Shown piece by piece: positions 7,201 through 28,706 of a stretch of 64,000 nt of DNA. The translations under genes and the position numbers were made by a program. The stretch is from Fimicolochytrium jonesii. Lineage: Eukaryota. Position 1 is the first letter of the stretch; each line of letters opens with the position of its first letter. Below the pieces are notes generated by a model. It saw only the letters and a program-made list of their open reading frames with translations. It searched no databases and was not told the origin of the DNA. Location of the stretch: positions 434,001 through 498,000 of the forward strand of contig NW_026515678.1 in assembly GCF_025526975.1 (NCBI RefSeq), written 5' to 3'.

Positions 7201-10200
7201 TCTTCCAGCAACTTACGACAGTCAGAAGGATCTGTTTCACGCCGCGCATAACGCCTTATCCCAGTCCACACATCTTTGGGGGTACAGGGCTCAAAACTGA
7301 TGCCAAGCGGTTATGCGATAAGAAAATCCTAGAGCTGGAAGAATGCTTGGATGAATTTCTGCAAGCCACGATGCTGAACTTCGGTGAAAATGCAGACGAA
7401 GTGAACCGTCTCCAGAGCGATTTCTTGCTTACGGGCCTCAAGCTGTTGGCGCTGCGTCGCAAGTTCTTAGCGGGCATTGTACCCAGTGGCATAATCCATG
7501 TACGTGTTTTGTCTTTGAGCAATGAAAGCGCCGGAGGAATGAACTGATATCAACGCATCTCCCCCTCACAGACTCGCGAGCAGTTGCAGGAGTTCTTTCG
7601 CCTGTACAAGATGAAAGTCATGGTACCGGCCATACGTCTTTATCACAAAATGGGAGCGAAGGGAAATGCCAGCATACGTAAGATATAATAGGAGCTTTTT
7701 GTGAATTCTCCCAAGCTCACTCTTCTTTCCTGCAGCGATGTTGCTGAGGGACGAGATGGTAACTGCTACTGTGGACTTTGACTTCAACCGAATCGCCCAA
7801 GCGGTAAGGGTTCTGCAATTATGATACACTTTCTTTGGCATCACATTCGTCAAGATCTCACACCATTCACGATTTGATAGCTCTTCGATCGCTGTCAGGT
7901 TGCAGTCCTACAAACCGAGCTTCAGCGCGAATACACATTCAAGCTTATTCGTCAAACTCGAATCTTTTATGATCGATTGGCGGACGAGCGCACCGGCCGC
8001 CTGTTCAGGGTCTACGATAGCTTGGATATTCCGTCGTCCACAGCTAACAAGGCCTTTGCATTCCGGATGACTGAGGATGATTATGCTGTTAAGACCGCAA
8101 TGATTCACGATTTCGTCAAGGACCTCTGGCGAGCGAATTCAGCTTTGGTGCGCCCTTTCTCTGCATTGTGTCCTATTTACCTCAGGGTTACTCATTCTTT
8201 TCGGTCAACTAGCTGAAGGAGATCCAGGAACCAGAAAAGAACATGCCCGCCAATAAGCAGCCAAAGGTTGTTAGTGGCCCCAATCCGCTCTTAGAGCACG
8301 GAAGAGTCTTTACGTGTACCAGAGATATGCTTGGTCAAGCGGTGCGTTGAGTTACTTTGTCTTTGAAATCTGGAATGTGCTCCTAAATGCTTTCCTTATC
8401 ACAACGCAGATCACCAAGCTAGCTCGACAAATGAGCAAATGGCAGGAGAAACGGCGAGGGGAGCAAGAACACTTCATGGGCACATTGATGGGCCGAATGA
8501 TGGAGATGGCCAAAACAGGGGAGAAGCTTGTTAAGCACTTGGTGCAGGAGAAGAAGGAATGGATGGAGGTATGGACATGACACCCTGAACGCGCAAAAAG
8601 GGCTTGAGGTAACGAGACGCTTGAAACCAAACCTAGACGTACAAGAGAGATGTCAGAGTCTCCGCATTCCAGCTCAGCAGCGAACTTCACACGGAACTAG
8701 CGTCCACATCCGTTGAGTTGGCCGATTTGCGGAAACAACGACGAACGGATGAGAGACGAATCCGATATCGGATTCTAGACGAGTATGATGATCTCGTACA
8801 AGAGCTGGTCATGGAAATCAACGTGCTTAGAAACCGCTTCTCGGAATATCGCGTAAACACATTCCAGGAAGTGATGAGCATCATGAGCGAAGCGAAGAAG
8901 GACGAGCTTCACGTGCTCATTGATAATCAGGAGATGCCGGCGAACATGAAGGACAGTGCCAAGTGGATGATCCGACATGAGGAGGAGGCCCAGGCTTTGA
9001 GACAAGAAAACCACGAGTTGAAAATGACCCTGCTGAAAGTACGCTCGATGTTTATCATCAAGGAGCAAGCCTTGCGCTCCATGTACGAGAAAAAGACGCG
9101 CAAACTAGCTGAGGGGAGCAAGTCCGCGGAAGAGAAGCTGTGGGATAGCTATCGAGAAGCGGAAGTACGCGAAAGTACGCTGAGGAGGCAGCTTGCCAAG
9201 GCTCAAAAGACCTTGAGCAGCAAAGAAGCGGAGTGCGACACGCTTCAACGGCACCTCCGCGAGGAGCAACAGAGAGTTCGGCAATTGACACCAATCACGA
9301 GTAGCAAAGATCGGGCTGTTTCCGCTGGTGCCGGTGGCCGCCGATACGCTGCTGTCGGTGGTGATAACGATCTGAACAAGATTGCGGAGCTTCAAGACAG
9401 ACTTAGCAGATACGAGGCGCTCAAGATTGACCTCATCCTCAACGAACTACAAGAGAAGACCAAGCTGGTGGAGCAAATGGTGGACGAAAAGCGGAAGAAA
9501 GGCGGTGTGGGCCAAACCGGGCGAGCAGGCGGGATGGCCGGTGACAGGAGCAGCGGAGGCCATCCATCTGACCACCGTCGAAGAGCTGTATCGGCTCGAT
9601 TAGCCAGACCACCAATGGTCATTAAAGCTATAGCACCGCGACGGAAGGGTCTGGGACCTTACAGTGAATATCGGGAGTGGACTGCAGAGGATGAGTCGCT
9701 CTCAGGACCCGGACAAAAGATCGAGAAAGCCGTGAACGATCACATGGTCGAGAAAATGAACAACCTAGCCCTCCAGAACAAGATTTTACGCCAAGTACTT
9801 GAACAGTGCAACATACCCGTACCGTCAGAGGCTGGTGATTTTATGGAAGAGTCGCCTCTCAAGCGAGGCACATCGGAATCGAGAAAAAGCGTCATGTGGG
9901 TGGATCAACAACAGCCCAGCACCTCGGACGATCTGAACTCCGAAGACGAAAACGATGACGAACCCGATGGCAATGGAGACCTACCAAGTACACCGAAAGC
10001 AAGGCCGGCGCAAAGCGCACCACCAGGGGGTCGATTGCGCGCAGCCCAACTCCGATCGAAACCCCTGGGAAGTGCTGCATCAGCAGGCGATGTAAAGCGC
10101 CCACCACGACTACCACGTCCAAATTCATTTGGTCTGGAGCCGGGACCAGTCGTCGGATCGGAAGGCCGCTTATCCGGTGCCCGTGAGTCGGCGACACCTG

Positions 10201-10596
10201 GATCATCCACGACCTCTCTCGGGCCCGAAGAGATGCAAAAGAGCGTGCAACCGGGCTCCACGAGAAGCATCAGAGCAGCTTCAGCAGTGTCGCTCACCGG
10301 GTCTACCGTGTCCGTGCGACAGTCTTCTTCTCTTTTGCACTCAAGACCAACGTCAGCATCGGATTACAGAATATCAGATGGTAAGAACTCAGACTGGCGC
10401 ATATTCGCTTCCCGGTCACTCAGTAACACGGTTTTGCGATCTTCTAGCATTGCGTACTGGCACACCCCCGCCGTTACTACCTCAGTCTCGCACATCTAGT
10501 GCCCGTCGGGACTCGGTGGGTTCACTCCATGCTTCGGGATCCGAAGCTCGGTTTTCGCTACCTTCATCACCACGTCCGATGACTCCGCGAATTTGA
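1270..10596 (+). CDS. Very large multi-exon coiled-coil protein, N-terminal region resembles DUF4549/CCDC162-like
   Basis: Chain of same-strand ORFs (1270, 1800, 2677, 3264, 4860-6908, 6936, 8718-10499) joined by short GT..AG introns. 'MLSRWARFCRTSHDV...EYVDTAERFERL' resembles DUF4549 from memory. Coiled-coil C-terminal half. A last intron at ~10381-10447 puts the stop at 10596. Confidence 0.6.
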
Positions 10597-10965
10597 ACAA
10601 GTTTCATTTCTCCTCACACACCTTCGATTTGTAAATCGAGATCTGTCTCGGACGCCCAATATATGGGTTTATTTAGCTCTTATACATATACGAATCCAAC
10701 GGAGTAAGCACAGTATGGGCCTATGGTCTCGGTGGGCGGAATTGAACCCTTTTGCACCTCTTCGCGTGACGTACAGTCAACGGACATAAACCTGTGCACC
10801 CCCTCTAATTGAAATCAAAGTCGGTCACTCACGTGAATTTGGCGTTGCGGCAGTCGCTGATTTATATCGTCTCAAAGTCCCTCGGATACCCATCATCCAC
10901 ACACTCCCGCCCACGAACAACCTCGTTGGAGCCAAATCATCCGCTTGTCATACTGTCCGTGCCTT

Positions 10966-11660
10966 TCACGCCTTGGGTTTGCGGTACCGGTCTATATCTC
11001 CCTGGCAGTTGGTCGATCCGCAGCAGCACTGGACAGCAATCGACAGGGTTTTAGATCTTGTGACTCAGCCCGTACCCAAACACTCATGTCCCTTCGCCTC
11101 GCCCTCACCTTGAAGTTCCATGCCGGATCCCAATAATCTGTATCATCCCCCAGGTTATACAATAATCTCCTCATCCTTCTTTACGGGCCGAGTGAGGATG
11201 ATATGGAGGTTGGAAAGTTTCGCGTTTGGGTCACAGGAGTCTGAGATTAGAGGGGAAAGGAGGGGTGATTTAGAACGGGTTGTGCTGGAGTGTTGTGGGA
11301 TTAAGCAAACTTACGATTTGCGAATCGTGCGTCGGAGGTGGGGAGAAGCCTTAGCTGGGAATGAGAAAGGACGTTTAACTCCTGCATCATCTGATCTGAT
11401 ATCGTATGTCGCAAACAGATCACGGGTGACGATTGGAAGAAGCCTGATGTGCAGGCGCAACATGGGCTGGAGCATTTCTGATCGCATATCCGGAAGAACA
11501 TCATCAAGGCAAGGGCGAATGGTGCGAGAGAGGGTGAAAGTGATGGGAGGAGGAAGTTGCAGAGACTGGGTGTGGAGGGGGAGTTGTGAGAGAGGGTGAA
11601 GGTGGGGGTCTGGGCAAGGTGAGCCGCTTATGTGTATATATCAGATCTCTGGTGCGTTTG
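10966..11660 (-). pseudogene. SET-domain methyltransferase, C-terminal half (SET-C + post-SET), frameshifted
   Basis: Splicing introns 11241-11314 and 11029-11108 gives 'ARFAN|HSCDPNA...TRPVKKDEEII' then, in a shifted frame, 'YNLGDDTDYWDPAWNFK|CCCGSTNCQGDI' (NHSC motif and post-SET CxCGSxxC). In-frame TAA/frameshift near 11157. Confidence 0.75.
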
Positions 11661-11795
11661 CAGTGCTCTATTCAGTTACATTCCAAATGATATTTGAGAA
11701 TATATAGTGTTGATTAGTACAAGTTGCCTTCATCGGCGACGCCTCAGGCAGAGGTACAATGATGTGGATGGCAGATAACCACCACGGAAAATGGG
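11661..11795 (-). ncRNA. Candidate Fanzor omegaRNA scaffold (predicted guide = flank 11660-11646)
   Basis: Lies between the Fanzor stop (11813) and the element end. Three hand-foldable stem-loops on the minus strand: 11785-11764 (GTGGTGG..CCATCCAC), 11757-11717 (GTAC.TGCCT..AGGCA.GTAC), 11704-11677 (TATATTCTCAAAT..ATTTGGAATGTA). Confidence 0.5.
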
Positions 11796-11812
11796 ATGGG
11801 GTGAAATCTAGA

Positions 11813-12694
11813 CTACCCGTTACGGGAGAATGCGTCTGGTCTGCGGCCATTGCCAAACACCACCGAACGCACAATCGAGAGGAAATTCTTGGTGCTCAGG
11901 ACGTCCCGATTGTACACTCTCATCCATAGTCGTAGTGGTCGTCTTCCAGGAATCTCAAATGCTGTCCAGTCTTGGTTGATACATTCGGGGTTGGGGCAAC
12001 CCACCAATCCATGGACGTATTCCATTCTTCCCTTTCTAGCTTGCCATGGCCGAGATGACAGCTGCTGTCGGATGTTTTTCTTCACACGGCCGTGGCAGTC
12101 TGGGCACACAGAAGAAGTTCGATACTCATCTAGCAAGTAGCACGGAATGCTGTTCCTTGCAAAGAGTGTGCGGAATCTGATTTCCATGATGAGTTAGCAT
12201 ATTATAATACATAGTAGGTACCACGAATGATGGTCACTCACCCCTTGGTCTTCGATGACTCCTGAAAGCGCATGGTTTTTCCAGCGTCGCTCCAATCACC
12301 CAAGATGACCGAAAGATGCTTTCCATACAGGCGTTGCATGTTCTTGATGAGCTTGCTCTCAGACTTTTGCCGCAGTGAGAACGCCTTGAACCTGCGAGCA
12401 ACGTGAATCTCATCCTGGTAAAACTCATCCAGGGCGGGATCTGGGATATGGATGGATGTCAGCCCATGTGTTACTAAATTTGAAGACAGCGCATAATACA
12501 TCATACCTGCATGTATGTGATCCACAATGAACGCTGAGAACGCCTCGATGTTCATGCTCTTGTGCGATGGAATATGTGATTCCATCTCAGCGATGCCAGC
12601 ATTGATCTTTCGCTCTCGCATGTCTCTTTGAAAGTACCGAGACTTTGTCTCGACCGCCCGTTGATTGGATGTGTATCTGGTATGGGGTGGTGCA
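11813..12694 (-). pseudogene. Fanzor1 (TnpB-like RuvC nuclease), C-terminal part
   Basis: Splicing introns 12441-12506 and 12177-12241 gives 'RYTSNQRAVETKSRYF...RRFKAFSLRQKSESKLIKNM...VILGDWS...KGFRTLF...LLDEYRTSSVCPDC...VHGLVGCPNPEC...YNRDVLSTKNF'. This includes the Fanzor-type relocated RuvC-II Glu (DEYRTS), the zinc-finger Cys pairs and RuvC-III NRD. Confidence 0.9.
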
Positions 12695-13245
12695 TGTTAC
12701 GGACGACGCGCCCATACCGTAAGCTTACCTACTGACGGCCGCCAATGTCAACCGCCAAATGTCAAACGCCAATGTCAATGTCAATGTCAGTGTCAATGTC
12801 AGTGTCAATGTCAGTGTCAATGTCAATGTCAATGCCACTCCCCCTCTCTCATCTCATTTCGCCAATCCTCCCGCAATATCGCCACTCCTCCTCTCTCCTC
12901 TCATTTCGCAAATCCCCCCTCGGCTTCTCCACACCCCCCACTACTTCCCCATAGCCAGCAGCTGTAGCAATGCTCTCTACGCTCGCCACCCACGCTCTAG
13001 GAGCATAGCTGGCGCCCCCCCAGTCCCCTCTTGTTGTTGTTGTTCTCTGATCTGCTGGGTTGCCTATCTATAAATAGCCGGCCTCTCTTCGTCCATTCCC
13101 TTCCTCCCCAGCAGTTCAAAACCAGTTCTTCTCATCTCCTGTTCTAGTCCTTGCTTCTTGTTTCGCCAATACAATCTCTTGTCGCCTATCACACTCGCCC
13201 TGTCTTCTCTACTTCGCTTCCGCCCCCGTTGTCGAGATCATAACA
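12695..13245 (+). repeat. 5' LTR of outer retrotransposon (contains (TCAATG/TCAGTG)n array)
   Basis: Starts TGTTACGGACGACGCG, ends TCATAACA, contains TATAAATA; direct repeat of 24092-24628. Confidence 0.95.
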
Positions 13246-13926
13246 GTTTGATCTGCTCCAACACTGCGAAGTTCAGAACCTGTCCAGCCCTGCATCCGAC
13301 AAACCTTTTTCGCCATGTCCCAACCCGAGTCCGTACCTTTCACCGCCAAGCAATGGAACGATATGTGCCAAGCCATCGCCGCCTTGCAAACCCAAAACGC
13401 CAACTTGCAGGCCAACCTAGCGCAAGCCCAAGCCGACGCACAAGCTGCCCAGAGCATCGCCGCCCAGGTTCAAGCCGATATGTACACCCGTCCCCAAGTC
13501 GCCAACCCTGCTCTGGAGCCAAGAATCAGCTCGCCCGAGAAGTTTGATGGTACCCGCAGCAAATTCCGTGGGTGGTTGAACAACATCCGGTTGATGTTTG
13601 CTCTCCAGCCCAACCGCTACCCCAGCGACATCATCAAGATCCAAACTATTGGCACCTACCTCACCGGCACTGCGCAAGCCTGGATAGCGCCCCTAGTCGA
13701 ACGCCAAGATCACAGCCTTCAGGACTTCGATAGTTTTATCAGTCAGATGCAATCGGTCTTCGGAGACAGCGACAGGGTCCGCACCTCTGAAAACAAGCTC
13801 CAGAACCTTCGCCAAACCCGTGCAGCAACCAAGTACGTCGCTGAGTTCCGCCAGCTACAATGCAATGTCTCCTGGAACGCCCAGGCCCTGATTGCTACCT
13901 TCCGCCGTGGCCTCAAAGAAGACGTC

Positions 13927-14457
13927 TGTTATGGACGACGCGTCCATACCATGCGCTTACCTCATGACAGCATCCCAACAGTCAGTCAATGTCAATTCCC
14001 TGTCAAAACCTGACATCTGCCAAACCTCGCAGCCGCACGCAGCTGCGCTACCCCACACCTGCCACTGCCTTCATTTCTCCACGCAGCCGCACGTAGCCAC
14101 ACCTCCCAACACTCGGCGCTTACAAACCCTTCTCCATACTTCCCCACGTACCCGCCCACAGCCTCAGCGTAGCCACCCCATCCCCGGTCTTCTGTTTCTA
14201 TGCTTCCCCACCCTTGGCGCTTCTCTTGGCTTCCCTCTCATTCCGTACCCTTCTGCTTCCCCACGCTTCCCCAGCCTTCCCAGAAAAACATAAATAGCCG
14301 CCTCCCCTGAGCTCCCCACTTCCTGATCCCCCCAGCAGATCAACACCAGTTCTTCCTAGTCTTGTTCTAGTTCTTGTTTCGGTCTGAATACCATTACCTG
14401 TCAACAACCTGCACCACAAGTCGCCTCTATTTCCATCGGCTCCGCCCATTCATAACA
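13927..14457 (+). repeat. 5' LTR of inner retrotransposon
   Basis: TGTTATGG...TCATAACA, near-identical to 19275-19805. Confidence 0.97.
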
Positions 14458-14469
14458 GTTTGATCTGCT
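14458..14469 (+). promoter_or_regulatory. Primer-binding site, self-priming type
   Basis: TTGATCTGCT (14460-14469) is the reverse complement of AGCAGATCAA (14334-14343), ~40 nt downstream of the LTR TATA-like box. No TGG tRNA-type PBS. The same PBS occurs at 13246. Confidence 0.7.
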
Positions 14470-14508
14470 CAACAACCCCCAGCCGCTGTACCTCCACGCC
14501 AAATCACC

Positions 14509-15435
14509 ATGTCCGACGCCCTTCCCCTCACGGCCGAAGCCTGGCAAGCCATGTGCAATGCGATTGACGAACTTCGAGCACAGAATACCACCCTACAAGC
14601 CGAACTAGCGCAAACCCAGACCACTGCCCCTGCCACCCACGCCCCCGAACCCAAAATCAGTCTCCCAGACAAATTTGATGGCACCCGAAGCAAGTTCCGT
14701 GGGTTCCTCAACCAGATCCGGCTCATGTTTGCCCTCCAACCCAGGCGCTACCCCAACGATCAGACCAAGATACGAACTATTGGCACCTACCTCACTGGCA
14801 CCGCCCAGGCCTGGCTGGCGCCCCTTGTCGAACAAGACCATCATTCCCTTACGAACCTGGATGATTTCATCCAGCAAATGCAAGCAGTCTTTGGAGACAG
14901 CGACAGGATCCGCACATCCGAAAACAAGCTCCAGAACCTTCAACAAACCCGTGCAGCAACAGAGTATGTAGCTGAATTTCGACAGCTGCAATGCGATGTG
15001 TCGTGGAATGACCAGGCATTGATTGCCACCTTCCGTCGCGGCCTCAAAGAAGACGTCAAGGACTTAGTGCTCACGATGCCCCCTACCGCCTCAATCGACA
15101 CTGTGATGGAACAGGCCATCCAATGTGACAACCGATTGTTTGAGCGCCGTCTAGAGCGAAGCAGGAACCGACAGTCATATGTGCCAGTTACCACTAGCCC
15201 CACCCTCATGAGCCCCGACAACCGCCCAGACGACCCTATGATCATTGACGCTGCTCGTCCGCGAGGACCCCTCACGCCGCTAGAGCGCCAACACCGCATC
15301 ACAAACAAACTTTGCCTCTACTCTGGTAAACCCGGCAACATAGCCAAACTCTGCCCGAACAAGATACGCACGGCGAATGTCGCGGTTAAGGAACCTGCAC
15401 CCATCCAGGATTTTGCCCAAGTCCAGCTGCAGTAA
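14509..15435 (+). CDS. gag: Gag of inner retrotransposon
   Basis: Intact 308-aa ORF with PDKFDG motif; the zinc knuckle is degenerate (CLYSGKPGNIAKLC). Confidence 0.92.
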   Translation: MSDALPLTAEAWQAMCNAIDELRAQNTTLQAELAQTQTTAPATHAPEPKISLPDKFDGTRSKFRGFLNQIRLMFALQPRRYPNDQTKIRTIGTYLTGTAQAWLAPLVEQDHHSLTNLDDFIQQMQAVFGDSDRIRTSENKLQNLQQTRAATEYVAEFRQLQCDVSWNDQALIATFRRGLKEDVKDLVLTMPPTASIDTVMEQAIQCDNRLFERRLERSRNRQSYVPVTTSPTLMSPDNRPDDPMIIDAARPRGPLTPLERQHRITNKLCLYSGKPGNIAKLCPNKIRTANVAVKEPAPIQDFAQVQLQ

Positions 15436-18400
15436 AGGCCGAGCAGCTGGGCAACACCTGTCCTGGGCCTTCTCACCACGCAAGTACTGCCAAGGGAGAA
15501 GCCACAAAACCTTGCTCCGATCCTGGCATCTCCAGCAACACCCTTCTCCTGACCACCAACAATGTCAATCTCCTATCTGAGATACCCTCACCCATGCGGA
15601 CTTTGGGCCCATCCTCACCATTCGAGTACCCTGTTACCCTGCAGATATCGGCCCAGCGAGCTCCAGTTCAGCTTTCAGCACTACTCGACACCGGTGCGAT
15701 GTCGTGCTTCATCGACGAAAGTTATGCCCGCAAGCACCGCATCCCACTTGTCAAGAAGGAGGACCCCATTGCGCTTGAACTGGTTGACGGACGTCCCAGC
15801 CATGCGGGCTCCATTACCCATCACACCCAACCTTTGGGCATGTGGGTCAACGACCATTTTGAGGAGGTGGTATTCCATGTGACATGTTCCCCGCATGCGC
15901 CAATCATCCTGGGGCTTCCCTGGTTTGAGCTCCATGATGTGGAGCTACACTGGAAGACTCGCACTCTTTGCGTCCGCTGCCATTGCGGTTTTGGACAATA
16001 CGCCTCCTGGGATGCCCTGCCAACAGAACCTAGCCCGAAGCCCTCAAAAACCCCTGAACCTCTGATCCGTATCCATCAAGACGAGATTTCAGTCTCCCTA
16101 GCCCAGACACCCAACACACTGGACCCAGCACCCACACCGATCCACGTATCGTTTATCAGCGCCCCAGCTTTCCGTGTGGCGGCAAGGCATGACCAGGCAT
16201 TCATTGCCTACGCCAATCCGACCAAGTCAGATTCCCAAGCCCTGGCGACCACTCCTCCAAAAGATCCGAAGGCCATCATTCCTGAAGAATACCAAGATTT
16301 TGCGGACGTCTTCGCCAAGAAGAACGCGGATACCCTCCCAGAGCACCGACCCTACGACTGCCCCATCGACTTAGAAGAGGGCAAACAGCCACCGTTCGGC
16401 CCGATCTATAGTCTCAGCGAGCCTGAAATGCAGGCACTCTGTGACTACCTTGAAGAGAACCTAGCTAAGGGGTTCATCAAGCACTCCAAGTCTCCCGCCG
16501 GTGCCCCAGTCCTCTTTGTCAAGAAAAAGGACGGTTCCCTCCGTCTGTGCGTCGACTATCGTGGACTCAACAATATCACCATCAAGAATCGCTATCCCTT
16601 GCCCTTGATTAACAGCATCATGGATCGTCTTCGAGGGGCACGCCGGCTCACCAAGATTGACCTCCGGGGAGCCTGCAACCTTCTTCGGATCCGGCCAGGG
16701 GATGAATGGAAGACAGCGTTCCGATGTCGCTACGGCCTATTCAAGTATAATGTCATACCGTTTGGGCACACCAATGCCCCTGGAGTATTCCAACACCTCG
16801 TGAACGACATATTCCGTGACATTCTCGACGTTTTTGTTGTGGTCTACCTTGACGACAGTCTGATCTTCTCAAAAAACCCAGAAGACCACCCCAACCACGT
16901 CCAAGAGGTGCTCTCACGACTCCGCCAGCACGGGCTGTATGCGAAACCGGAAAAATGCGAATTCAACCGTGACTCTGTTGAGTTCCTGGGGTTTATCATC
17001 TCTCAGCAAGGCATTTCCATGGACCCAAAGAAGACGGCTGCCATTACCAAATGGGAACCCCCGACGAATGTCAAAGGCATCCAACGCTTCCTTGGTTTTG
17101 CCAACTTCTACCGGCGATTCATCAAAGGGTACTCTGCGATCGTTGCACCCCTGACCTCGCTCACTCGCAAAGACTTGCCATTCAAATGGACCCACGCTGC
17201 ACACCTAGCTTTTGAAACCCTCAAGAAAGCCTTCACCTCCGCACCTATCCTGACTCACCCCGACCCTGACAAGCCCTTCATTGTCGAATCCGATGCCTCC
17301 GACTTTGCCCTTGGCGCCGTCCTCCTTCAACCCGATGACACAGATCAACTCCACCCCGTGGCCTTTCACTCCCGCAAATTTACTCCTGAGGAAATCAACT
17401 ATGAGATCTACGACAAGGAACTCCTGGCTATCCAAGACTCATTTGCTCAATGGCGACACCACCTCATTGGTGCCCGCCACAAGGTCATCGTTTACTGTGA
17501 CCACAAGAACCTCCAGTACTTCATGACTACCCGTACCCTCAACCGCCGCCAATCCCGCTGGTCAATCTTCTTTGCTGATTTTGACTTTGTCATCACATAC
17601 CGCCCTGGTACCCAGCAACACCAAGCTGACGCCCTCTCTCGTCGCTCTGAATACGAGCTAAGGGAGGGGGAAGAAGCATTCCGCTCCCAGGAAACCACGA
17701 TCCTCACCCCTGACCATCTCCGCCTGGCCGCCACTTATCTGACCCCACTGGACTCCTCGCTCCTTGACCAAATCAAAGCTGCCCTGGCATCCGATGTGTT
17801 TGCGCAAACCATCCGGCGACAGCTTAGGGCCCCCATTGCCCAGCAATCTCAAGAAGACCAAGAACGGATAAAGCGATTCTCCGAGGAAAATGGGGTTCTG
17901 CTGTACGACAACCTTGTCTACGTCCCCACCAACAAGCTCCGTGCTGAGATCTGCCGGGACATGCATGACACGCGTTTGGCAGGACACTACGGCATGTCAA
18001 AGACCCTGGAGCTCATCTCACGCAACTACTGGTGGCCTAGCCAGTGGCGTTTTGTCAAGTCCTACATCAGGTCCTGCGACGTATGTGCTCAAGCCAAGAC
18101 CAGCAGACACAAGCCCTACGGTCTCCTCTAACCCCTGCAGGTCCCTGACCGCCCCTGGGGGTCAATTTCCATGGACTTCATCACGGATCTACCCGCCAGT
18201 GATGGGGTTGATTCTGTGCTCGTTGTCATCTGCCGGTTCACCAAGATGGCGCACTTTGTACCGTGCAGGAAAACTGCCACCGCTGAGTCAACTGCAGATC
18301 TGATCTGGCACCATGTCATCCGGCTCCATGGACTCCCCGACGATATTGTATCTGACCGTGGCCCACAGTTCAACTCCCACTTCTGGAAACGTCTCTTCGC

Positions 18401-19262
18401 TCTCCTGGGAATCAAGGTCAACCTCTCATTGGCGTTCCATCCCCAGAGCGATGGACAAACCGAGCGGACCAATCAGATTCTTGAGCAATACCTTCGCTGC
18501 TTTTGCAACTATCAACAAGATAACTGGAAGGAACTCTTGTCTTCTGCTGAGTTCTCTTACAATAACACCATCCACTCCGCCACCCAGACAACCCCCTTCT
18601 ACGCCAACTATGGGTTCCATCCTCGATTCAGTCTGGCTTCCGCCACCACAACAGAATCCCTTAATCCTGCAGCCGAAGCTTGTGCCAACCATCTCAAGGA
18701 AATCCATGAACAGCTTGCCACTGAGCTCAAGGAGGCCCAAGGACGCATGAAGCGCTTTGCCGATGCTAAGAGGGCACCTGGCCCAGACATGAAACCCGGT
18801 GACAGTGTCTGGCTCTTACAGCGGAATCTCAAGACTCTCCGACCTTCCCAGAAACTTGATCACCGTAAGATTGGCCCCTTCACAATCACGGAGAAGATCA
18901 ACTCGGTCACATATCGCCTCAAGCTTCCCCCATCCTACAAAATTCACAACGTCTTCCATGTCTCCCTTCTTGAACCACGTTTCACCATTCCGGAGCGAAC
19001 TGAGCCAGAACCCACCCCACCAGAAGAAGTCGAAGGACAGGAGGAATGGATTGTGGAAGACATTCTTGACTCCCGTATTCGACGCACGCACCTTCAGTAC
19101 CTCATCCAGTGGCAGGGTTGGCCAAGCTCGGAGAACACATGGGAGCCAGTGGAACACCTTGCCCGATGTCAAGAGCTTGTAGCCCAGTTCCACCAAAAGT
19201 ACCCCGACAAACCCCGACCAAAGCCTGCCAACATCAAAACAACATCCGGACGCCGTGGCTAA
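15408..19262 (+). pseudogene. pol: Pol of inner retrotransposon (PR-RT-RH-IN-chromodomain), one premature stop
   Basis: The -1 frame is open from slippery site 15408 into ORF 15594. Motifs LLDTGA, YLDD, DASD, integrase core, chromodomain YLIQWQGW..NTWEP. A TAA at 18129-18131 replaces Gln in GLLQP; the frame continues into ORF 18171-19262. Confidence 0.93.
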
Positions 19263-19274
19263 AAGAGGGGGTGA

Positions 19275-19805
19275 TGTTATGGACGACGCGTCCATACCAT
19301 GCGCTTACCTCATGACAGCATCCCAACAGTCAGTCAATGTCAATTCCCTGTCAAAACCTGACATCTGCCAAACCTCGCAGCCGCACGCAGCTGCGCTACC
19401 CCACACCTGCCACTGCCTTCATTTCTCCACGCAGCCGCACGTAGCCACACCTCCCAACACTCGGAGCTTACAAACCCTTCTCCATACTTCCCCACGTACC
19501 CGCCCACAGCCTCAGCGTAGCCACCCCATCCCCAGTCTTCTGTTTCTATGCTTCCCCACCCTTGGCGCTTCTCTTGGCTTCCCTCTCATTCCGTACCCTT
19601 CTGCTTCCCCACGCTTCCCCAGCCTTCCCAGAAAAACATAAATAGCCGCCTCCCCTGAGCTCCCCACTTCCTGATCCCCCCAGCAGATCAACACCAGTTC
19701 TTCCTAGTCTTGTTCTAGTTCTTGTTTCGGTCTGAATACCATTACCTGTCAACAACCTGCACCACAAGTCGCCTCTATTTCCATCGGCTCCGCCCATTCA
19801 TAACA
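19275..19805 (+). repeat. 3' LTR of inner retrotransposon
   Basis: Direct repeat of 13927-14457, followed by TSD ACGTC. Confidence 0.97.
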
Positions 19806-20169
19806 ACGTCAAAGACCTGATGCTCACAATGCCCCCTGCGGCCACCATTGATGTGGTGATGGAGCAGGCTATCCAGTGCGATAACCGGCTGTTTGAGCGC
19901 CGCCTGGAGCAAAACAGAAGCCGCCAGACCTTCCCGGTTCCCCATACCTCGTTTACTACTACCACCACTGTCGACCACAGCGAGCCTATGCAGATTTACG
20001 CCGCTTGTCCCCGCGGCCCTCTGAGCCCTCAGGAACGCCAACGCCGCATTTCCAACAACCTCTGCCTTTACTGCGGTGGCGCGGGGCACATTGCAAAAGT
20101 CTGCCCCGTCAAGAACAAGACCACCACCCGTGCCGCCAACATTGACATCAAAGAACCCTCCACCAAACA

Positions 20170-23100
20170 GGGTTTTCCCAAAGTCCAGCCGCAGTAAAGC
20201 CCCAGCGACTGGACAACACACACCGCCCCGGGCCTCCTAACCTCGCAGCTCCTGCAACGGGAGAGGCCACCCCCCTGGTTCCCGACTCCGTTATAGCCGA
20301 CACAACCCTCCTAGCCGCTGCCCATGTCGAAAACTCCGAAATTAACCCCCGCGCCATGCTTGCGCTGGGTCCCGTCAAACCCTTCAACTACCCCGTTACC
20401 ATCATGGTATCATCCAGCCGCGCCCCGATACCTACCTCAGCCATGATCGACAACGGTGCCCTGTCCTGCTTCATCGACAGAGACTTTGCCCGCAAACACC
20501 GCATCGCCCTAGTCCCGCATCAGCGTCCACTGACGATCGAACTCGTTGACGGTCAACCCAGCTCTGCTGGGCCAATCACCCATCACACCCAACCAGTAGG
20601 CATGTGGGTCGACGACCACTTCGAAGAACTCGTCTTCCATGTCACCAAATCACCCCATGCTCCGATCCTCCTTGGACTCCCCTGGCTCCGCCTCCACGAC
20701 ATTAACCTTGACTTCAAGAACCTTTCGGTCGGTTTCCGTTGCGAATGTCAGTACCATGAATTCGCAAATTGGGACAACTCTCCAGCACCCCCGAGCCCAG
20801 CACCCGCCAGAACCCCCGAGCCCTTGATCCGCATCCCCCAGGATGAAGTTCCCGTCGACGAAACATGGTCGATTCCAGTACCCAAGGTATCTCGCTCCAG
20901 CACCCCAGAACCGGCTCCCACGCCGCTCCGAGTCTCGTTCATCTCCGCCCCAGCCTTCCGGGTCGCAGCAAGGCATGACCAGGTCTTTGCCGCCTACGTT
21001 AACCCTGCGAAACCCGATCTCCCAGCCTCGCCTAGCCCCAGTAACCCCCCGACACCCGAGAAAGACATCAAAGACTTCCTGCCCCCCGAGTATCAAGACT
21101 TCGCCAACGTTTTCGAAAAGAGAAATGCTGACACTCTCCCCGAGCACCGGCCCTACGACTGTCCAATCGATCTGGAAGAAGGCAAGCAGCCACCTTTCGG
21201 CCCGATCTACAGCCTCAGCGAACCAGAAATGAAGGCACTCTGCGAATACCTCGAAGAAAACCTCGCCAAAGGATTCATCAAACCCTCAAAGTCCCCTGCC
21301 AGTGCGCCAGTCTTATTCGTGAAGAAAAAGGACGGTTCTCTCCGCCTCTGCGTCGATTATCGAGGCCTAAACAGCATCACGGTGAAGAATCGCTACCCCC
21401 TGCTCCTGATCAACGGTATCATGGATTGTTTGCGCGGCGCCCGCCGTCTCACCAAGATCGACCTCCGCAGCGCTTAAAACCTCTTACGCATGCGCCCGGG
21501 CGATGAATGGAAAACCGCCTTCCGCTGCCGCTACGGCCTATTTGAATACAATGTCATGCGCTTTGGACTGAGCAATGCTCCTTGCGTCTTCCAGTACCTA
21601 ATGAACGACATCTTCCGCGACATTCTCGATGTGTTTGTTGTCGTCTACCTCGACGATATCCTGATATTCTCCAAGAACCCCGAAGATCACCCCAAACATG
21701 TCCGCAAAGTCTTGTCCCGCCTCCGACAGCATGGGTTGTACGCCAAACCAGAGAAGTGCGAATTCAACCGCGAATCCGTTGAGTTCCTAGGCTTCATCAT
21801 CTCCGAGAAAGGCATCCAGATGGACCCCAAGAAGATTGCTGCCATCACGGATTGGGAACCTCCCAAGACTGTCAAAGGCGTCCAGCGGTTCCTCGGCTTT
21901 GCCAACTTCTATCGCCGATTCATCCAGGGTTATTCCAAGATCGCTACCCCGCTCACAGCCCTGACCCGGAAAGACATCCCGTACGCCTGGACACCCGCCT
22001 GGACACCGCCTTCGAGAACCTGAAGAAAGCATTCACCACCGCCCCCATCCTTGCTCACCCTGACCCAGAGAAGCCCTTTGTCGTCGAAACTGACGCCTCC
22101 GACTTCGCTCTTGGCGCAGTTCTCCTCCAAACTGACCAGGACAATCAGCTCCACCCCGTGGCCTTCCACTCTCGCAAATTCACGGCCGAAGAGATCAACT
22201 ACGAGATCTACGACAAGGAACTTCTGGCCATCCAAGACTCCTTTGCCCAGTGGCGACACCATCTCATTGGCGCCCGTCACAAGATCACCGTTTACTCCGA
22301 CCATAAAAACCTTCAGTACTTCATGACCACCCGCACCCTGAACCGCCGCCAAGCCCGCTGGTCGATATTCTTCTCGGATTTTGACTTTGTCATTACCTAT
22401 TGCCCCGGTTCCCAGCAGCACCAAGCCGATGCCCTCTCCCGACGCTCCGAACATGAGCTTAAAAAGGGGGAAGAAGCGTTCCGCTCCCAGGCAACCACAA
22501 TTTTGACTCCCGAACGCCTTCGACTCGCCGCGGCCTACCTCACACCCATGGATACCACGCTGCTTGACAAGATTAAGGCCGCCCAGGCCTCTGATCCCCT
22601 CGCTAAGACCATTCGCCAACAGCTCAAGATACCCCTCGCCCAACGAACCGAGGAAACCCAAGATCGTATCAAGCGGTTCTCAGATGAAGACGGGATCCTG
22701 CTGCACGATAACCTGGTCTATGTCCCCACCAACGAGCTCCGAGCTGAAGTCTGCCACGACAAGCACGATACTCCCCTAGCCGGCCACTTTGGGATGTCCA
22801 AGACGCTCGAACTCGCCTCCCGCAACTACTGGTGGCCCAGCCAGTGGCGCTTCGTCAAGGCCTACGTCAAGTCCTGCGATACCTGTAGCAAAGCGAAATC
22901 CAGTCGACACAAACCATACGGCCTACTCCAGCCCAACAGTATCCCTACCCGCCCTTGGGGATCTTGGTCCCTGGACTTTATCACCGGTCTGCCTCCCGTG
23001 GACGGGTACGACTCCATCCTGAACGTCAACTGTCGCCTCACCAAGATGGCCCACTTCATCGCCTGCAGCGAGTCAGAATCCGCCGAATCCACCGCCGACC

Positions 23101-24079
23101 TAGTCTTCCACAACATCATCCGTCTCCACGGCCTCCCCGACGACGTCATCTCTGACCGAGGACCCCAGTTTAAGTCCCGGTTCTGGCGTTGACTTCTCGA
23201 ACTCCTTGGGGCAAAGCCAACCTCTCCTCGGCCTTCCACCCCCAGAGCGATGGCCAGACGGAACGCACCAACCAGATCCTGGAGCAGTATCTCCGATGCT
23301 TTTGCAACCACCAACAGGACAACTGGAAACAGCTTCTGTCGTCCGCCGAGTTCGCCTACAACAACACCCACCAGTCCGCCTCCCAGACCACCCCCTTCTA
23401 CGCCAACAAGGGTCTCCACCCCCGCTTCAGTTTCGCGGCCTCTGCTACCTCCGAATCCGTCAACCCCGCCGCTGAAGCCCGCGCTAAACAAATCAGGGAA
23501 GTCCATGAACAGCTCGCCCTCGAGCTCAAGGAAGCCCAAGATCAGATGAAGCGCTACGCCGACGCTAAATGAATTCCTGGACCGGACTTCAAGCCTGGCA
23601 ACCATGTCTGGCTCCTCCGCAAAAACCTCCAGACAGCCCGGCCCTCTCAGAAACTCGACCATCGCAAGATCAGGCCATTCCCCATTGTTGAAAAAATCAA
23701 TCCCGTCGCCTACCGGCTCAAGCTCCCGCCTACGTACAAAATCCACGATGTCTTCCATGTCTCGCTCCTCGAACCCCGCTTCACTATCCCCGAACGACAC
23801 GAACCCGAACCCGCGCCCCCAGAGACCGTTGAGGGTCAAGAAGAGTGGGTTGTCGAAGCCATCCTTGACTCTCGCATCCATTGTCGTCGCCTTCAGTACT
23901 TGGTCAAATGGCAGGGCTGGCCTGACTCCGAGAACACCTGGGAGCCCGTGGAACACCTCACCCATACCGACGCACTCCTCCAGGACTTCCACAGCGCGTA
24001 CCCCAACAAACCTTCCTCTGTCCCCGTAGCACCTCCTCTGCGGCCACACCAAACTCGACGCCGCCGCCGCCGCCGCTAA
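20170..24079 (+). pseudogene. pol: Pol of outer retrotransposon, multiply disrupted
   Basis: ORF pieces 20356-21477, 21490-22023, 21852-23192, 23189-23572 and a chromodomain near 23850-23950. Stops at 21477 and 23572; frameshifts near 21990-22010 (GCCTGGACACC duplication) and 23190. Confidence 0.92.
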
Positions 24080-24091
24080 AGAGAGGGGTGA

Positions 24092-24628
24092 TGTTATGGA
24101 CGACGCGCCCATACCATAAGCTTACCTACTGACAGCCGCCAATGTCAACCGCCAAATGTCAAACGCCAATGTCAATGTCAATGTCAGTGTCAATGTCAGT
24201 GTCAATGTCAATGTCAATGCCACTCCCCCCTCTCCTCTCATTTTGCCAATCCTCTTGCAATATCGCCACTCCTCCTCTCTCCTCTCATTTTGCCAATCCC
24301 CCCTTGGCTTCTCCACACCCCCCACTGCTTCCTCATAGCCAGCAGCTCTAGCAATGCTCTCTACGCTCGCCATGCACGCTCTAGGAGCATAGCTGGCGCC
24401 CCCCAGTCCCCTCTTGTTGTTGTTGTTCTCTGATCTGCTGGGTTGCCTATCTATAAATAGCCGGCCTCTCTTCGTCCATTCCCTTCCTCCCCAGCAGATC
24501 AACACCAGTTCTTCTCATCTCCTGTTCTAGTCCTTGTTTCTTGTTTTGCCAATACAATCTCTTGTCGCCTATCACACCTGCCCTGTCTTCTCTACTTCGC
24601 TTCCGCCCACGTCGTCGAGATCATAACA
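24092..24628 (+). repeat. 3' LTR of outer retrotransposon
   Basis: Direct repeat of 12695-13245 with roughly 25 substitutions and a 12-bp shorter microsatellite (hand count). Confidence 0.95.
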
Positions 24629-25517
24629 ATCCTGGGGAGGAAACAGAGCCCATAACTCGTCGAGGACGGTCCGCTCAAGTCGTGTGAGGCGCGCAAACTC
24701 TTCTTCGGTTGGAAACTCTTCAAACGTCGCATACTTTTTAAACTGACGGACACGCTGATAATAGTGTCGCCGCTGCGCTCGGTTGACTCCAGCTCTACGG
24801 AGATGCAGTACGACTTGCTTCAAACCAAGCCTTTCATTGACGTAGCGCAGAAAAATTTGCATGAAATGCTCTTGTACGTTAACTTTGAGGTTTGTGAAGA
24901 TGCTCGTAGCCGTGTACGCTGCGGTCTGATGGCAATACTGCATGCGGATGGGGGCGAATCCGTGAACATCACAGTAGTCTTGAACCCATGGATGCAACAC
25001 TTGCACGATGACCGGATTGCCGTTGTAGCCTGGATTGTTTAGCAGCTCAAATATCACACTGATGTGCTTGTCGGTGATGTCCGGGAAATCGTGTAGAGGA
25101 TGATCAGCTGTGGTGGGGGGCAGACGTAGCAGTCAGGACATTGGTTTATGGGAAATATACTGTGTACCTCAAAAACTCACCAAGGTAGTACTTGAGAAAA
25201 AAGCTGGTGTGGCGCGCAAGGATGTGAACATTGCCGACGAATGTTGTCAGGCGCTCCCTTTGCTCCCTTTGAACTTGATTATGGATGATTCGGTGAAGCA
25301 AAACCTTGGTGCTGGCATGTGTTTGCGGGCGGGGTCGTTGAGCTGGTGGTGGTGGCGGGGGTTCATACACCAGGGATCCACCCGGTGTGCTGGGAAAACG
25401 GAAAGGGATGGGCGCGGGAAGGTTCAGTGGGCGCTGCAGACCCCTGTCCGCAGGTGAAAGCCCTCGCTGCGGCTGCTGCTGCTGCCTGTCTTCATCGCCG
25501 GAGCTCTCGCCAACCAT
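24629..25517 (-). pseudogene. Fanzor1, N-terminal part (WED-I/REC), truncated by the LTR
   Basis: Splicing intron 25108-25180 gives 'STKVLLHRII...VGNVHILARHTSFFLKYYLADHP..PDITDK...YTATSIFTNLKVNVQEHFMQIFLRYVN...LFPPQD|LTR', matching the Fanzor1 N-terminal pattern (H.F.K.Y.L; T...NN.K.HF..Y..RYVN). Start may be 25517 or 25715. Confidence 0.8.
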
Positions 25518-26075
25518 GTCTGCAATTGCTTGGGGCAAGTGGCGATGGACAGAGGGCGGGAGCTCGAATCGTGGGGTTTGCAATGGTGTGGCTGGCAGAC
25601 ATATGGGCAATTGCTGGGTAACCAGAGCAACCTTCCTCCTCTTCTGCCGTGGTGTGGTTGCTCCAGTAAATATGCACCACCACAGGTGCCCCTGGAGCGC
25701 CTGGTGTGATGACATGTTGGCTGTGCTGTGCCGAGACAGGTGTTGCAGGTGATTGCCGTGATGGCTGTGTGTCAAAGAACTTGCGTCAGTGCTGTGGTAA
25801 AGATTGCGGAGAGCAGGAAGGATTTACAGCCTGGCGCAGTCGTGGCGCAGTTGTGGCTTGTCGCCGCATCTCCAAGACCACGCTCTCCTCCTCTCAAACG
25901 AAACGTCAAGCGCTCGCAGCTCACGCAACTCACGCAGAGCACACTCTGAGCATGGAAACGTCTCGACGACAGCCCCCTCACCCCTGGCCAGCGCCCACCT
26001 CCTTCCAGCTCAAGCCCGGCAACTCACGCAGAGCAAGCGCATTTGAGCATGGAAACGTCAAGCAAGGTGAGTGGC

Positions 26076-26264
26076 CGCTGGCTGTTGACCGCCTGGGCTG
26101 GCGGTCCATATGGAGCACGACCGCCGCTTGCGGGAGGTCGACCTGCATGGGCCGTGCTGTCTGGGCGTCTCCGCTGGGTGTTGGCCGCCTGGGCTCGCGG
26201 TCCATGTTGAGCACGACCGCCGCTTGCGGGAGGTCGACCTGCATGGGCCGTGCTGCCTGAGCGT
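26076..26264. repeat. ~96-bp tandem duplication inside the Fanzor element
   Basis: 'GCCTGGGCT.GCGGTCCAT.T.GAGCACGACCGCCGCTTGCGGGAGGTCGACCTGCATGGGCCGTGCTG' occurs twice. Confidence 0.85.
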
Positions 26265-26294
26265 GTTTGCTATACGCTGATCTCACGGGCTGAG

Positions 26295-26803
26295 ATGCTA
26301 ACACCTTCCCTTCCCCCCTTCCCCTCTACCGCGCCGCAGGCCACGCCCCCGGTCGCACCCACCGCGGTCGAGGCTCTTCTGATGGGCATGGGCGAGACCT
26401 GCGCCACAGCTATCTTCGGCGACACGGTGGCCTTTTTGTATCCGCTGCTGGTAGACGCCGGCCTTGCCGCCCGGGACGCCAGCCTAGAAGACAAGGCCAA
26501 GGCGATTGGCCTTTTTTCACAGAAGATCAAGCAAGACAACCCCACCCTTGCTTTTTATATGGCCTTGATCCGTGGAACATGAGCATGGTGGAGGCCGCTG
26601 AACAGGTGCGCGCACCAAGTGGCACGGTCCTGGTGATTGCTGGCACATCGTTGGCGGAAGGGCCCACACAGACACTAGTCAAGAAACTCGCGAACAAGGT
26701 CCGGGAGGTAATCAACATCAACAGGCGACGGTTGACTGTCGACCTCGAACGTGCCTTATATATGCTGGGGGACATCGAAGACTTCTTCGGCAACCCCGAG
26801 TGA
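26295..26803 (+). pseudogene. Cargo ORF pair; second part resembles a sirtuin (SIR2) C-terminal Rossmann segment
   Basis: 'VLVIAGTSL...LVKKLANKVREVININ...LGDIEDF' resembles sirtuin GTSL / IN / GD motifs. Out of frame with upstream ORF 26250-26582. Confidence 0.4.
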
Positions 26804-27157
26804 CCCCGAGTGACCCGGGGTCATCTGAAGAAATGGCTAGTGTAGCGTGGGTAGCGTGTAGCAGTAGGTAGCGTGGCGAACGTCGTGGCAGTAGCGATGA
26901 AGCCCCTTTTGTATTACCGTGGCCTGTGGCGTGGCAGTAGCGATGAAGTCCTTCTGTTGATAAAAGTTAAGCATGGATAGCGTAGCGGGCTAGCGTGGCA
27001 TAGCAGTAGCAAGGAAAGAAAAGCTCTGTTGATAAATATGGTACAATCGCGCGGCAGCTACCCTACTTTCAGTTCCCGTATACAGCAGCTGCAAATAATA
27101 GGGCGGGGTGAGCCCGAATATACCTCTCGAAGGCGTCGCTTGACCATCGAGCGCCCC

Positions 27158-27370
27158 TCATATGGTACAGTACCTCTCTGTGTCACTCTTTACGGAAGAA
27201 ACTGTCAAAACTGTCAAAATCCTCCAACGCCTTCCCCCTGCTCTTGCTCTCTCGAGACTCAACACCATCTCCTGGACGATGCACGTACGGCAAAATAGGT
27301 GCCCGCACGGCCCGTTGTAGTTGGCAGGGTTGATCATACAGATCGGGCAAGTTGGACCGCCGTTCGGCAT
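27158..27370 (-). CDS. Small RING-finger-like cargo ORF
   Basis: CPIC..PCGHLFCRTC C3HC4-type motif; the final Cys pair is not clearly present in frame. Confidence 0.55.
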   Translation of the reverse strand: MPNGGPTCPICMINPANYNGPCGHLFCRTCIVQEMVLSLERARAGGRRWRILTVLTVSSVKSDTERYCTI

Positions 27371-28459
27371 CTTGATGGATTGGTTGGATTTGGGTGTCGG
27401 AAAGAGAGAGTGTGTTGTTGATTGGAATGGAGTTGAGAGCGGGAGTTGGACAGGCTGACTTTTGGACAGCTCGAGTCGGGGGAGTGTTGTGCAGAGACGC
27501 GAACTATCCTGTCAGTTGCTGTCATTGCGTAAGCAGACGCGTAAGCAGTCTGGTCACGGTCAGAGAGACAAAGACCCCGACGCCAGAGTCCGGAGTATAT
27601 AGACATACAACAAGTAATACATTAAGACCAGTAATGGTTCTACTCTTCATCGGCTACTTCCCAGTAATAACTCAACAAGATACGACCTCGCACGGTGGCC
27701 ATATGCGTTGTTAGTCTCAACCGGCCTCGCTCGTTGGTTCTTTTTCAACTTGTTTAATGGTGCTTTGGTGAACTTCCGCATCCTGCACGTCTTCCAAGTC
27801 CTCCACTATGCTATCGTCGTCCCTCGGGGCGTCACCATCGTCCAGACCATCTGCAGCGGCGGCCTCTGTGGTCTTTATATGCGTGTCTTTGACAGTTTTC
27901 TCGTAGGATATTCCCACCCGAATGCAACGGTACCTGCCCTGATCCATAGTACCATAATACAGGAAGGGCCGTTTTTTGAGGCTTGTGCTGCAACGGAGAT
28001 TCCTCACAGTGCCGTCAGTATCCAAGAATCCGACATGTTCGCCTGACTTGGTGCATCCGCCAAATTGTGTTGTGCGAACATCAAAGCCTGATATGAAATG
28101 AAGATGCCCACACCCCAGATCCCACCCGTAAAGAAGCAAAGAACGTAGAAGTTTCCGAGAGTTGTCACGCCTGAGGAAAAGAGGGCATATGTACGGTAAC
28201 AGTTTCAACCTCGGTGATCCCGAATGGCAGCTCTTGAAACAGGTGAAAGCTACCTATCAAGTGCGCCAACGTGACGCCCACGCTCAATGTTTAAGCTCGG
28301 AAAAGGTGATACTCCGACGGGGACCATATGTCACGAGAACCAAAAATCGTAGTCAGTGATTTTCAATACATATCATTAATTTGCATCAGGCGCTAGCTCA
28401 CCATTGCGTCCTTGAAGAATGCTGAAGTGTACGGCTAGGTTCAGATGGCAGCAGGTGTG

Positions 28460-28706
28460 CGCGGGGCGGAAACCGAAGGTCCCATCACACATAGGCGACG
28501 GTCCGTCCCTATGGCTAGCCCGTTGCCGAACGATGGGATCGCCGTTTCCCAGCTACCACTGTCCTTTATATGCCGTTGCTCGGCTGGATCACGGTTGCGT
28601 ACAGGTTATGCGCAGGGCGGAAACCGAAGGTCCCATCACACATAGGCAACGGCGTAAGATCCGTCCCTATGGCTAGCCCATTGCCGAACGATGGGATCGC
28701 CGTTGC
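28460..28706. repeat. Subterminal direct repeat (~90 bp x2)
   Basis: 'GGGCGGAAACCGAAGGTCCCATCACACATAGGC..TCCGTCCCTATGGCTAGCCC.TTGCCGAACGATGGGATCGCCGTT' at ~28463 and ~28615. Confidence 0.85.

Follow-up and report, generated by a model that had tools for sequence, protein, structure and literature searches.

Are two blocks of coding sequence that face a retrotransposon from both sides the halves of a single gene, and if so, how was its middle lost and does anything functional remain? This question is raised by a locus in the chytrid Fimicolochytrium jonesii (Spizellomycetales), where a first-pass annotation of 64,000 nucleotides (nt) of genomic DNA (contig NW_026515678.1, positions 434,001 to 498,000; hereafter the window, numbered from its first letter) had described a minus-strand Fanzor1 gene lying in two pieces 12 kb apart. 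Fanzor proteins are the eukaryotic relatives of the DNA cutter Cas12, and SpuFz1 is the best-studied eukaryotic RNA-guided nuclease. The analysis described here indicates that the locus is probably a broken copy of a Fanzor1 gene which is closely related to SpuFz1, contains introns and exists in many copies. The present copy has been deprived of 177 residues including the RuvC-I aspartate and likely specifies no active nuclease, and its gap likely arose by recombination of two Ty3/Gypsy insertions. Proteins referred to by P-numbers (P0001, P0038, P0034 and others) are automatic gene models of F. jonesii.

Identity of the two halves

All motifs named in the first-pass annotation were found in the minus-strand translation, and the assignment to Fanzor1 held for the N-terminal half as well as for the C-terminal one. 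In searches of the Protein Data Bank (PDB), SpuFz1 (8gkh_P) came first for each of three pieces, with E values of 5.2e-19 (exon 2), 1.3e-26 (region 12696-12241) and 4.4e-30 (last exon), PpFz1 ranking second for the latter two (E 6.3e-10 for the last exon). Judged by these sequence matches, homology to SpuFz1 is far beyond chance. Searched alone, the final 55 codons of exon 1 (25346-25182) gave no SpuFz1 match, and the homology of this part, from H22 of SpuFz1 onward, is visible only in the alignment of full-length paralogs. Pfam holds no family that matched the Fanzor pieces of the window and yielded sub-threshold zinc-ribbon matches for the paralogs, NCBIfam gave nothing useful for either, and the precomputed label PF26935 on homologs comes without a name.

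The catalytic site was assigned by way of the paralog P0010, which matches SpuFz1 with an E value of 3.5e-139. The catalytic residues of SpuFz1, D383, E541 and D606 according to the sections of PMC11423790 drawn on here, align to the IDPG, LDEY and NRD motifs of P0010, with positions counted by hand along this alignment and corrected for a 394-residue tag offset. As anticipated, the RuvC-II glutamate is relocated to a position ahead of the zinc finger: LLDEYRTSSVCPDC of the window aligns with E541, while GDWS occupies the canonical site, from which the glutamate is absent. Moreover, the RuvC-III motif NRD aligns with D606, and the four-cysteine zinc finger CPDC...CPNPEC is present. The loss of RuvC-I was borne out too, since the corresponding aspartate lies within the 177 residues that are missing relative to the full-length paralog P0034 (761 amino acids, aa), whereas LDEY and NRD are retained. 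In P0034 itself, D497 of IDPG aligns with D383 of SpuFz1 and the predicted triad D497/E656/D731 is intact.

A structure model of P0034 (73 sequences; pLDDT 83, pTM 0.78; pLDDT below 50 for residues 1-125) was compared with known structures by Foldseek. Its best match is SpuFz1 (9cey_P, E 1.5e-52, target TM 0.92), and in this model-based comparison SpuFz1, PpFz1 and GtFz1 (E 1e-52 to 1e-18) come ahead of Cas12f (1e-5) and TnpB (3e-3). The predicted fold is the enlarged REC/WED/RuvC architecture of Fanzor1 rather than that of Fanzor2 or TnpB, as judged on the paralog and not on the broken copy. One part of the resemblance to SpuFz1 is incomplete. Residues Q129/Q130 of SpuFz1 are kept in the paralogs checked and read HQ in this copy; N133, which contacts the target-adjacent motif (TAM) in SpuFz1, is replaced by alanine in the F. 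jonesii family, and no arginine stands opposite R96. Because of these two differences the TAM is not transferable from SpuFz1, and that of the F. jonesii family may differ.

Exons, introns and the broken reading frame

The N-terminal half begins with exon 1 (25715-25181, minus strand), which comprises the start codon, a sequence resembling a nuclear localisation signal (NLS), PRQKRRK, a Pro/Gln-rich extension of about 130 aa that is predicted to be disordered, and the first strand and helix up to FLKYYL; its open frame equals that of P0001. The proposal that translation starts at 25715 with PRQKRRK in frame gained support from the paralogs, as 17 of 17 models with this motif also share the start M[SP][SA][HD]QA[LV]QG. 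Exon 1 is followed by a predicted GT-AG intron of 73 nt in phase 1 (25180-25108), whose removal gives the product P0001, and by exon 2 (25107-24629), which encodes the REC region with NVQEHF..RYVN, corresponds to positions 492-617 of the SpuFz1 chain (approximately residues 98-223 of SpuFz1) and is ended by a long terminal repeat (LTR) after LWALFPPQD.

The C-terminal half had been taken to start with an exon at 12694, but positions 12694-12677 turned out to be what is left of the 3' part of a fourth intron, with CAG as its last letters, so that the coding exon begins at 12676. This was revealed by a frame test and by the models P0017 and P0045, which read through the intron and have the same CTTPYQIHIQ, preceded by KERPF and a low-complexity stretch; in addition, 16 alignment-block starts (several counted per model) fall at P0034 residues 516-520, the site of this intron. 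Its donor lies in the deleted DNA. The exon at 12676-12507 starts with (R)YTSNQR..ETK just past RuvC-I, aligns with SpuFz1 chain positions 795-846 and equals P0038. Next comes a predicted intron of 66 nt (12506-12441, GT-AG), which is stop-free and a multiple of three in length, and whose excision brings together the two stretches that match SpuFz1 separately in the alignment of 12696-12241. The exon at 12440-12242 carries GDWS in the RuvC-II region (chain 856-918), and the predicted intron behind it (12241-12177, 65 nt, GT-AG) is one over which the SpuFz1 alignment is continuous (chain 918/919). The last exon (12176-11813) encodes the relocated catalytic glutamate (LLDEYRTS), the zinc finger, the RuvC-III NRD and the stop codon. 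Hence, the three GT-AG introns that had been postulated were all located.

Spliced from the ATG at 25715, the N-terminal half forms an open frame of 338 aa that is identical to residues 1-338 of P0001, and the C-terminal half, spliced from 12675, forms an open frame of 243 aa identical to P0038 from its residue 2; the two models bear consecutive GenBank numbers on one contig, and their consistency with the proposed introns is an agreement between models, not RNA evidence. The further expectation that the halves join into a single frame of about 520 aa once the LTR block is removed failed: the direct join contains nine stops, the first at residue 373 when counted from 25715 or at residue 307 from 25517. 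What is absent corresponds to residues 339-515 of P0034, i.e. 177 residues that include D497 of IDPG and, according to the structure predicted for P0034, six strands of the core. The gene is broken, as first described, yet it is not merely interrupted, since it has lost about one quarter of its coding sequence and its halves do not share a frame. The absence of RuvC-I and of part of the core, together with the frame break, makes it likely that this copy is inactive, and because the RuvC-I aspartate (DPG-type motif) falls in the 177 deleted residues, it is filed as a pseudogene of the Fanzor1 family and not as a working member.

Nested retrotransposons and the origin of the gap

The block between the halves does consist of LTR retrotransposon sequence, although not of a single element: Pfam searches and LTR comparison resolved the 11.9 kb at 12695-24628 into two nested Ty3/Gypsy elements, both on the plus strand. 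The outer element A comprises a 5' LTR (12695-13245, 551 nt) and the 5' part of gag up to 13926, the remaining gag and a broken pol with pieces of protease, reverse transcriptase (RT), RNase H and integrase (19811-24091), and a 3' LTR of 537 nt (24092-24628, TG...CA), which is preceded by a polypurine tract and 95.7% identical to the 5' LTR. The inner element B, which carries a chromodomain, lies inside the gag of A (13927-19805), is bounded by LTRs at 13927-14457 and 19275-19805 that are 99.6% identical, and is flanked by the 5-bp target-site duplication ACGTC; the gag of A is open across B and this duplication. Element B is young. It has one in-frame stop in pol (18129-18131), just ahead of the integrase core. 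In both elements, GTTTGATCTGCTC follows directly after the 5' LTR. The order of gag, protease, RT, RNase H, integrase and chromodomain, the TG...CA LTRs and, for B, the 5-bp duplication are those of Ty3/Gypsy chromodomain retrotransposons, from which element A departs by its broken pol and by the absence of a duplication.

Both ends of element A are exact, TG...CA, with no base trimmed at either junction; nevertheless, no target-site duplication of 4-6 bp was found around A, even when boundary slips of 3 nt either way were allowed, in contrast to the ACGTC around B. Two exact integrase-type ends, unmatched flanks and lost DNA between them point to recombination between two insertions as the likely cause of the deletion of the gene's middle. 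According to this scheme, one element of the A family would have integrated in exon 2 and a second one, in the same orientation, in the intron ahead of RYTSNQR; recombination between the two would then have produced a single hybrid element, exact at both its TG...CA ends and set between unmatched flanks, the intervening DNA being lost, and element B would have entered the gag of A recently. The two LTRs of A are 4.3% apart with 14 gap columns, and the transitions between them are skewed by direction (13 vs 3, p 0.02; 9 of the 13 at CpG), as is expected if the two LTRs had different histories.

In favour of an origin from one gene, both halves are nearest to the same paralogs, P0002, P0003 and P0012 (Spearman 0.93, n=9), although this correlation would look the same for a single copy and for two members of one subfamily, and partly reflects the decay of each paralog. 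Against this history, the profile of CpG loss along element A shows no crossover point, and there is some prospect, albeit a slim one, of a mis-join of the assembly across the repeat.

The first rival is a single Ty3 insertion combined with the loss of the gene's middle by a separate deletion or by break repair ending at the LTR edge. It would need one integration and would be in keeping with the missing crossover signal, but it has to accommodate two exact TG...CA junctions without a trimmed base and LTRs that differ asymmetrically, and a chance deletion would rarely end exactly at an LTR end; we consider it unlikely. Second, the assembly might have joined two Fanzor copies, each with an A-family element, across the repeat. 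The many similar copies, the lack of a duplication around A and the divergence of its LTRs would suit such a chimera, as would the fact that the N-terminal half has a near-identical sister, P0015, while for the C-terminal half no match above 96% was seen besides P0038 itself. However, the shared nearest paralogs, the fit of the two parts of A into one collinear element with gag open across the duplication of B, and the presence of a distinct nested element in the block, which should help an assembler, render it quite unlikely. That the halves are still expressed and useful, for instance as a nuclease-dead DNA- or RNA-binding fragment, is very improbable, for although neither has a stop or frameshift, open frames are expected after a recent break (paralog identity 95-96%), and the C-terminal half is without its own start, the join is out of frame and six core strands are lost.

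The CpG content of the region was noted separately. Within 11813-26800, the observed/expected ratio is 0.65-0.87 in the Fanzor halves, the upstream region and the LTRs and 0.95-1.02 in the pol of A, and the host genes of the window reach 0.99-1.11; the depletion suggests methylation of repeats.

Paralogs and phylogenetic position

Two homolog searches and one cluster listing yielded 65 proteins, of which P0042, P0055 and P0059 were dropped as unrelated. The remaining 62 F. jonesii Fanzor models, the two of the window included, are spread over about 30 contigs, and several of them may be pieces of one locus. Fanzor1 is here a multi-copy mobile gene of a eukaryotic nuclear genome, surrounded by host-type genes and furnished with spliceosomal introns. 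Most paralogs show 77-96% identity to the pieces found in the window, and P0015 is identical to the N-terminal half over the whole of exon 1. The suggestion that intact copies exist elsewhere in the species was substantiated by the protein searches insofar as complete-looking ones were found: all three catalytic motifs occur in 19 of the 62 models, and all 12 tested motifs in P0034 and P0060, the latter being about 40 aa short internally. The completeness of P0034 in turn relies on an automatic gene model, which has to be counted on the debit side.

A search with P0010 returned 1893 representatives at E values up to 0.001, and the named organisms among the ten top matches looked up are Phlyctochytrium arcticum, Spizellomyces, Gaertneriomyces and F. 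jonesii. In a quick tree with SH-aLRT branch support, built from 39 rows hand-picked from 150 matches and the paralogs, with the window's C-terminal half filling 36% of the columns, the F. jonesii rows group with Gaertneriomyces (98) within a clade that includes Spizellomyces (98).

Intron positions among relatives

In terms of P0034 codons, the introns of the F. jonesii family lie at 179, 516, 573 and 639. A metagenomic relative, L001, encodes a complete-looking Fanzor1 (511-2787, plus strand; 717 aa, 44% identical) with all three catalytic motifs and two introns at codons 273 and 698, none of them in common with F. jonesii, and SPu-1, SPu-2 and SPu-3 of Spizellomyces punctatus are described as single-exon in the parts of PMC3627910 used here. 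Gene-model breaks recur near P0034 residues 350-357 and 419-427, hinting at additional introns in the deleted part. Independent intron gains are the simplest reading, though three lineages do not fix the direction. With four introns seen in F. jonesii, two in L001 and none in SPu-1/2/3, the comparison suggests that introns were gained or lost repeatedly and recently among the members of one small clade, which is testable. Beside its Fanzor gene, L001 carries an intron-free open reading frame (ORF) of at least 434 aa (3792-5093, plus strand) without a Pfam match, which is by eye GC-richer than the Fanzor gene.

The right end and a candidate omegaRNA

Twenty nt past the stop codon begins a predicted omegaRNA scaffold of 78 nt (11792-11715, minus strand), which folds into two stems, ends in ACTA and would coincide with the right end of the element; a guide would start at 11714. 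Its fold has a z value of -2.35 (5 of 200 shuffles), with boundaries chosen after inspection. When numbered in the manner of SpuFz1, it matches 8 of the 13 internal protein-contact positions named in the sections of PMC10432273 consulted, and SPu-1 and SPu-2, as given in the available part of the supplement of PMC3627910, share with it TTTTCCG followed by a hairpin. A pattern joining both scaffold ends has one match in the window, at this site (0.04 expected; the pattern was built with the site in view). The candidate right end of L001 likewise finishes in TACTA, near 2896, after a similar stem.

Several results detract from this assignment. At least 8 of the 13 contacts together with ACTA occur 17 times in the two strands of the window, a start at 11756 scores 9 of 13 without an ACTA end, and Rfam gave nothing at 10500-12000. 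When wider stretches of the 3' region were folded, significance was not reached (z -0.7 to -1.5), and the 3' region of L001 gave a fold z of -1.15. The omegaRNA at 11792-11715 is thus put forward as a predicted candidate with a modest margin over chance.

The right end at 11715, which finishes in TA, is preferred over a Helitron-type 3' end (a hairpin, then CTAA and T at 11717-11713; judged by eye), since L001 and SPu-1 have the same kind of ending. The scan of 41 ORFs of the window turned up neither a Helitron nor any other transposase. Terminal inverted repeats were sought between 25716-33000 and 10400-11830, where no match of 22/30, 19/24 or better exists, and no upstream mirror of the right end was found with up to 3 mismatches; no left terminal repeat was thus detected in the window.

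Comparison with known Fanzor systems

The closest known system is SpuFz1/SPu-1 of Spizellomyces punctatus (PDB 8gkh, 9ceu-9cez; sections of PMC10432273, PMC3627910 and PMC11423790), whose core shows 41-43% identity to that of the F. jonesii family. Both share the fold, the D/E/D triad with the relocated glutamate, the zinc finger and the presence of many decayed copies. The two-stem RNA of SpuFz1 (75 nt) has a predicted counterpart of similar size (78 nt) right after the stop codon here, and the consulted part of PMC10432273 also reports for SPu-1 Ty3/Gypsy insertions into the gene, so that such insertions inside Fanzor genes are already published. On the other hand, SPu-1/2/3 are single-exon whereas the F. 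jonesii family has at least four introns and the disordered N-terminal extension of about 130 aa; the SPu-1 type is bounded by terminal inverted repeats of about 30 nt and a TA duplication, while the left inverted repeat was not found in the window; and, apart from alanine in place of N133, RuvC-I is absent from the present copy.

Introns in Fanzors, at densities of up to about 9.6 per kb, have likewise been published (sections of PMC10530073). The CrFNuc proteins of Chlamydomonas resemble the F. jonesii family as multi-copy Fanzor1 with spliceosomal introns, but they are Helitron2-associated, and for them RNA binding was shown while cleavage was not detected, as stated in the same sections. 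Among Fanzor1 elements, 5' regions that vary or ends that are not defined have a precedent in the MCi-2 family of Mucor circinelloides and in SPu-2 (part of PMC3627910); in F. jonesii a variable 5' end is suggested by two gene models, P0015 and P0017.

The family itself has been catalogued before. Table S2 of Yoon et al. 2023 (PMC10711439, consulted in part) holds 33 rows of putative F. jonesii Fanzors, one of which, KAI8821099.1, is the C-terminal half of the window; the GenBank identifiers of the N-terminal half, P0034, P0010 and P0060 do not occur in that file, the look-up having been made by GenBank and not by RefSeq identifier. The table is a list of hidden Markov model hits, and the examined passages of the paper do not deal with the locus, introns or RNA of F. 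jonesii Fanzors. The species was not found in nine searched supplements of PMC10432273 or in two of PMC10530073, nor was a paper found on the loci, introns or RNA of its Fanzors in a literature search covering few subscription journals. The locus is a real Fanzor1 pseudogene of an already catalogued family, and the finding is real but largely ordinary.

Proposed activity and significance

If homology to SpuFz1 is a guide to function, the transcript of a complete copy such as P0034 would be spliced, and its product would enter the nucleus, bind an omegaRNA that is read from the right end of the element into the flanking DNA, and cut TAM-adjacent DNA matching this flank by means of its D497/E656/D731 site; cleavage would likely favour spread of the element or its retention at empty sites. 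The predicted scaffold survives in the present copy, which may still supply a guide in trans, as has been proposed for ghost loci (part of PMC10432273).

A more far-reaching view, which we regard as doubtful, is that the F. jonesii family is a still-active nuclease of the SpuFz1 clade with its own spliceosomal introns and a disordered NLS arm, that it recognizes a different TAM, that the element carrying it lacks terminal repeats and picks up pieces of host genes (RING, Sir2) at the 5' end, and that dozens of dead copies keep their omegaRNA as a repertoire of trans guides. If this were true, it would be the first intron-rich Fanzor with demonstrated cleavage in the literature examined and could be paired with the intron-less SpuFz1 to test what introns do for a Fanzor. 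The copy as such matters little, being a decayed transposon gene whose C-terminal half is already catalogued. Its value is that of a pointer, as it provides an exon map, the full-length candidate P0034 and a predicted omegaRNA for a relative of SpuFz1, whose altered TAM contacts could give it a new targeting range.

The upstream region and the remainder of the window

The DNA ahead of the Fanzor start is common to the window and P0015 over about 930 nt, up to 26648, while P0017 matches only to 25761. The region contains two tandem 96-nt repeats (26075-26264) and, divergent from the Fanzor gene, a Sir2-like C-terminal fragment (26456-26803, plus strand), which matched NCBIfam PRK00481 (E 0.0018, far below the cut-off) and Atlas Sir2 clusters (0.90) and part of whose DNA is common to P0015. 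The ORF has no sirtuin match in Pfam or PDB and no homolog among longer proteins. Two plus-strand frames (26211-26582 and 26294-26803) overlap, meeting close to a run of T at about 26555; the second is weakly similar to a sirtuin C-terminus, and 26277-26803 may be a decayed or captured sirtuin fragment. Further upstream, a short minus-strand ORF (27370-27212) encodes a truncated RING finger (Pfam zf-RING_UBOX, E 9.6e-8, profile positions 1-29 of 39) and is followed by short repeated motifs at about 27050-26790.

Elsewhere in the window, 917-10499 (plus strand) is occupied by a very long gene of multiple exons, the last of which is coiled-coil-like and whose scanned ORFs matched nothing in Pfam or NCBIfam, and ORFs of 649 and 892 aa at 52147-56695 (plus strand) contain tandem arrays (75 nt x10, 135 nt x3, 132 nt x2) and one sub-threshold SSB_1 match. 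The intervals 30555-48700 and 60929-61750 harbour ordinary host genes, namely RPAP3-like, ankyrin, ubiquitin-like, amidoligase_2, WD40, casein kinase II beta and E2F/DP.

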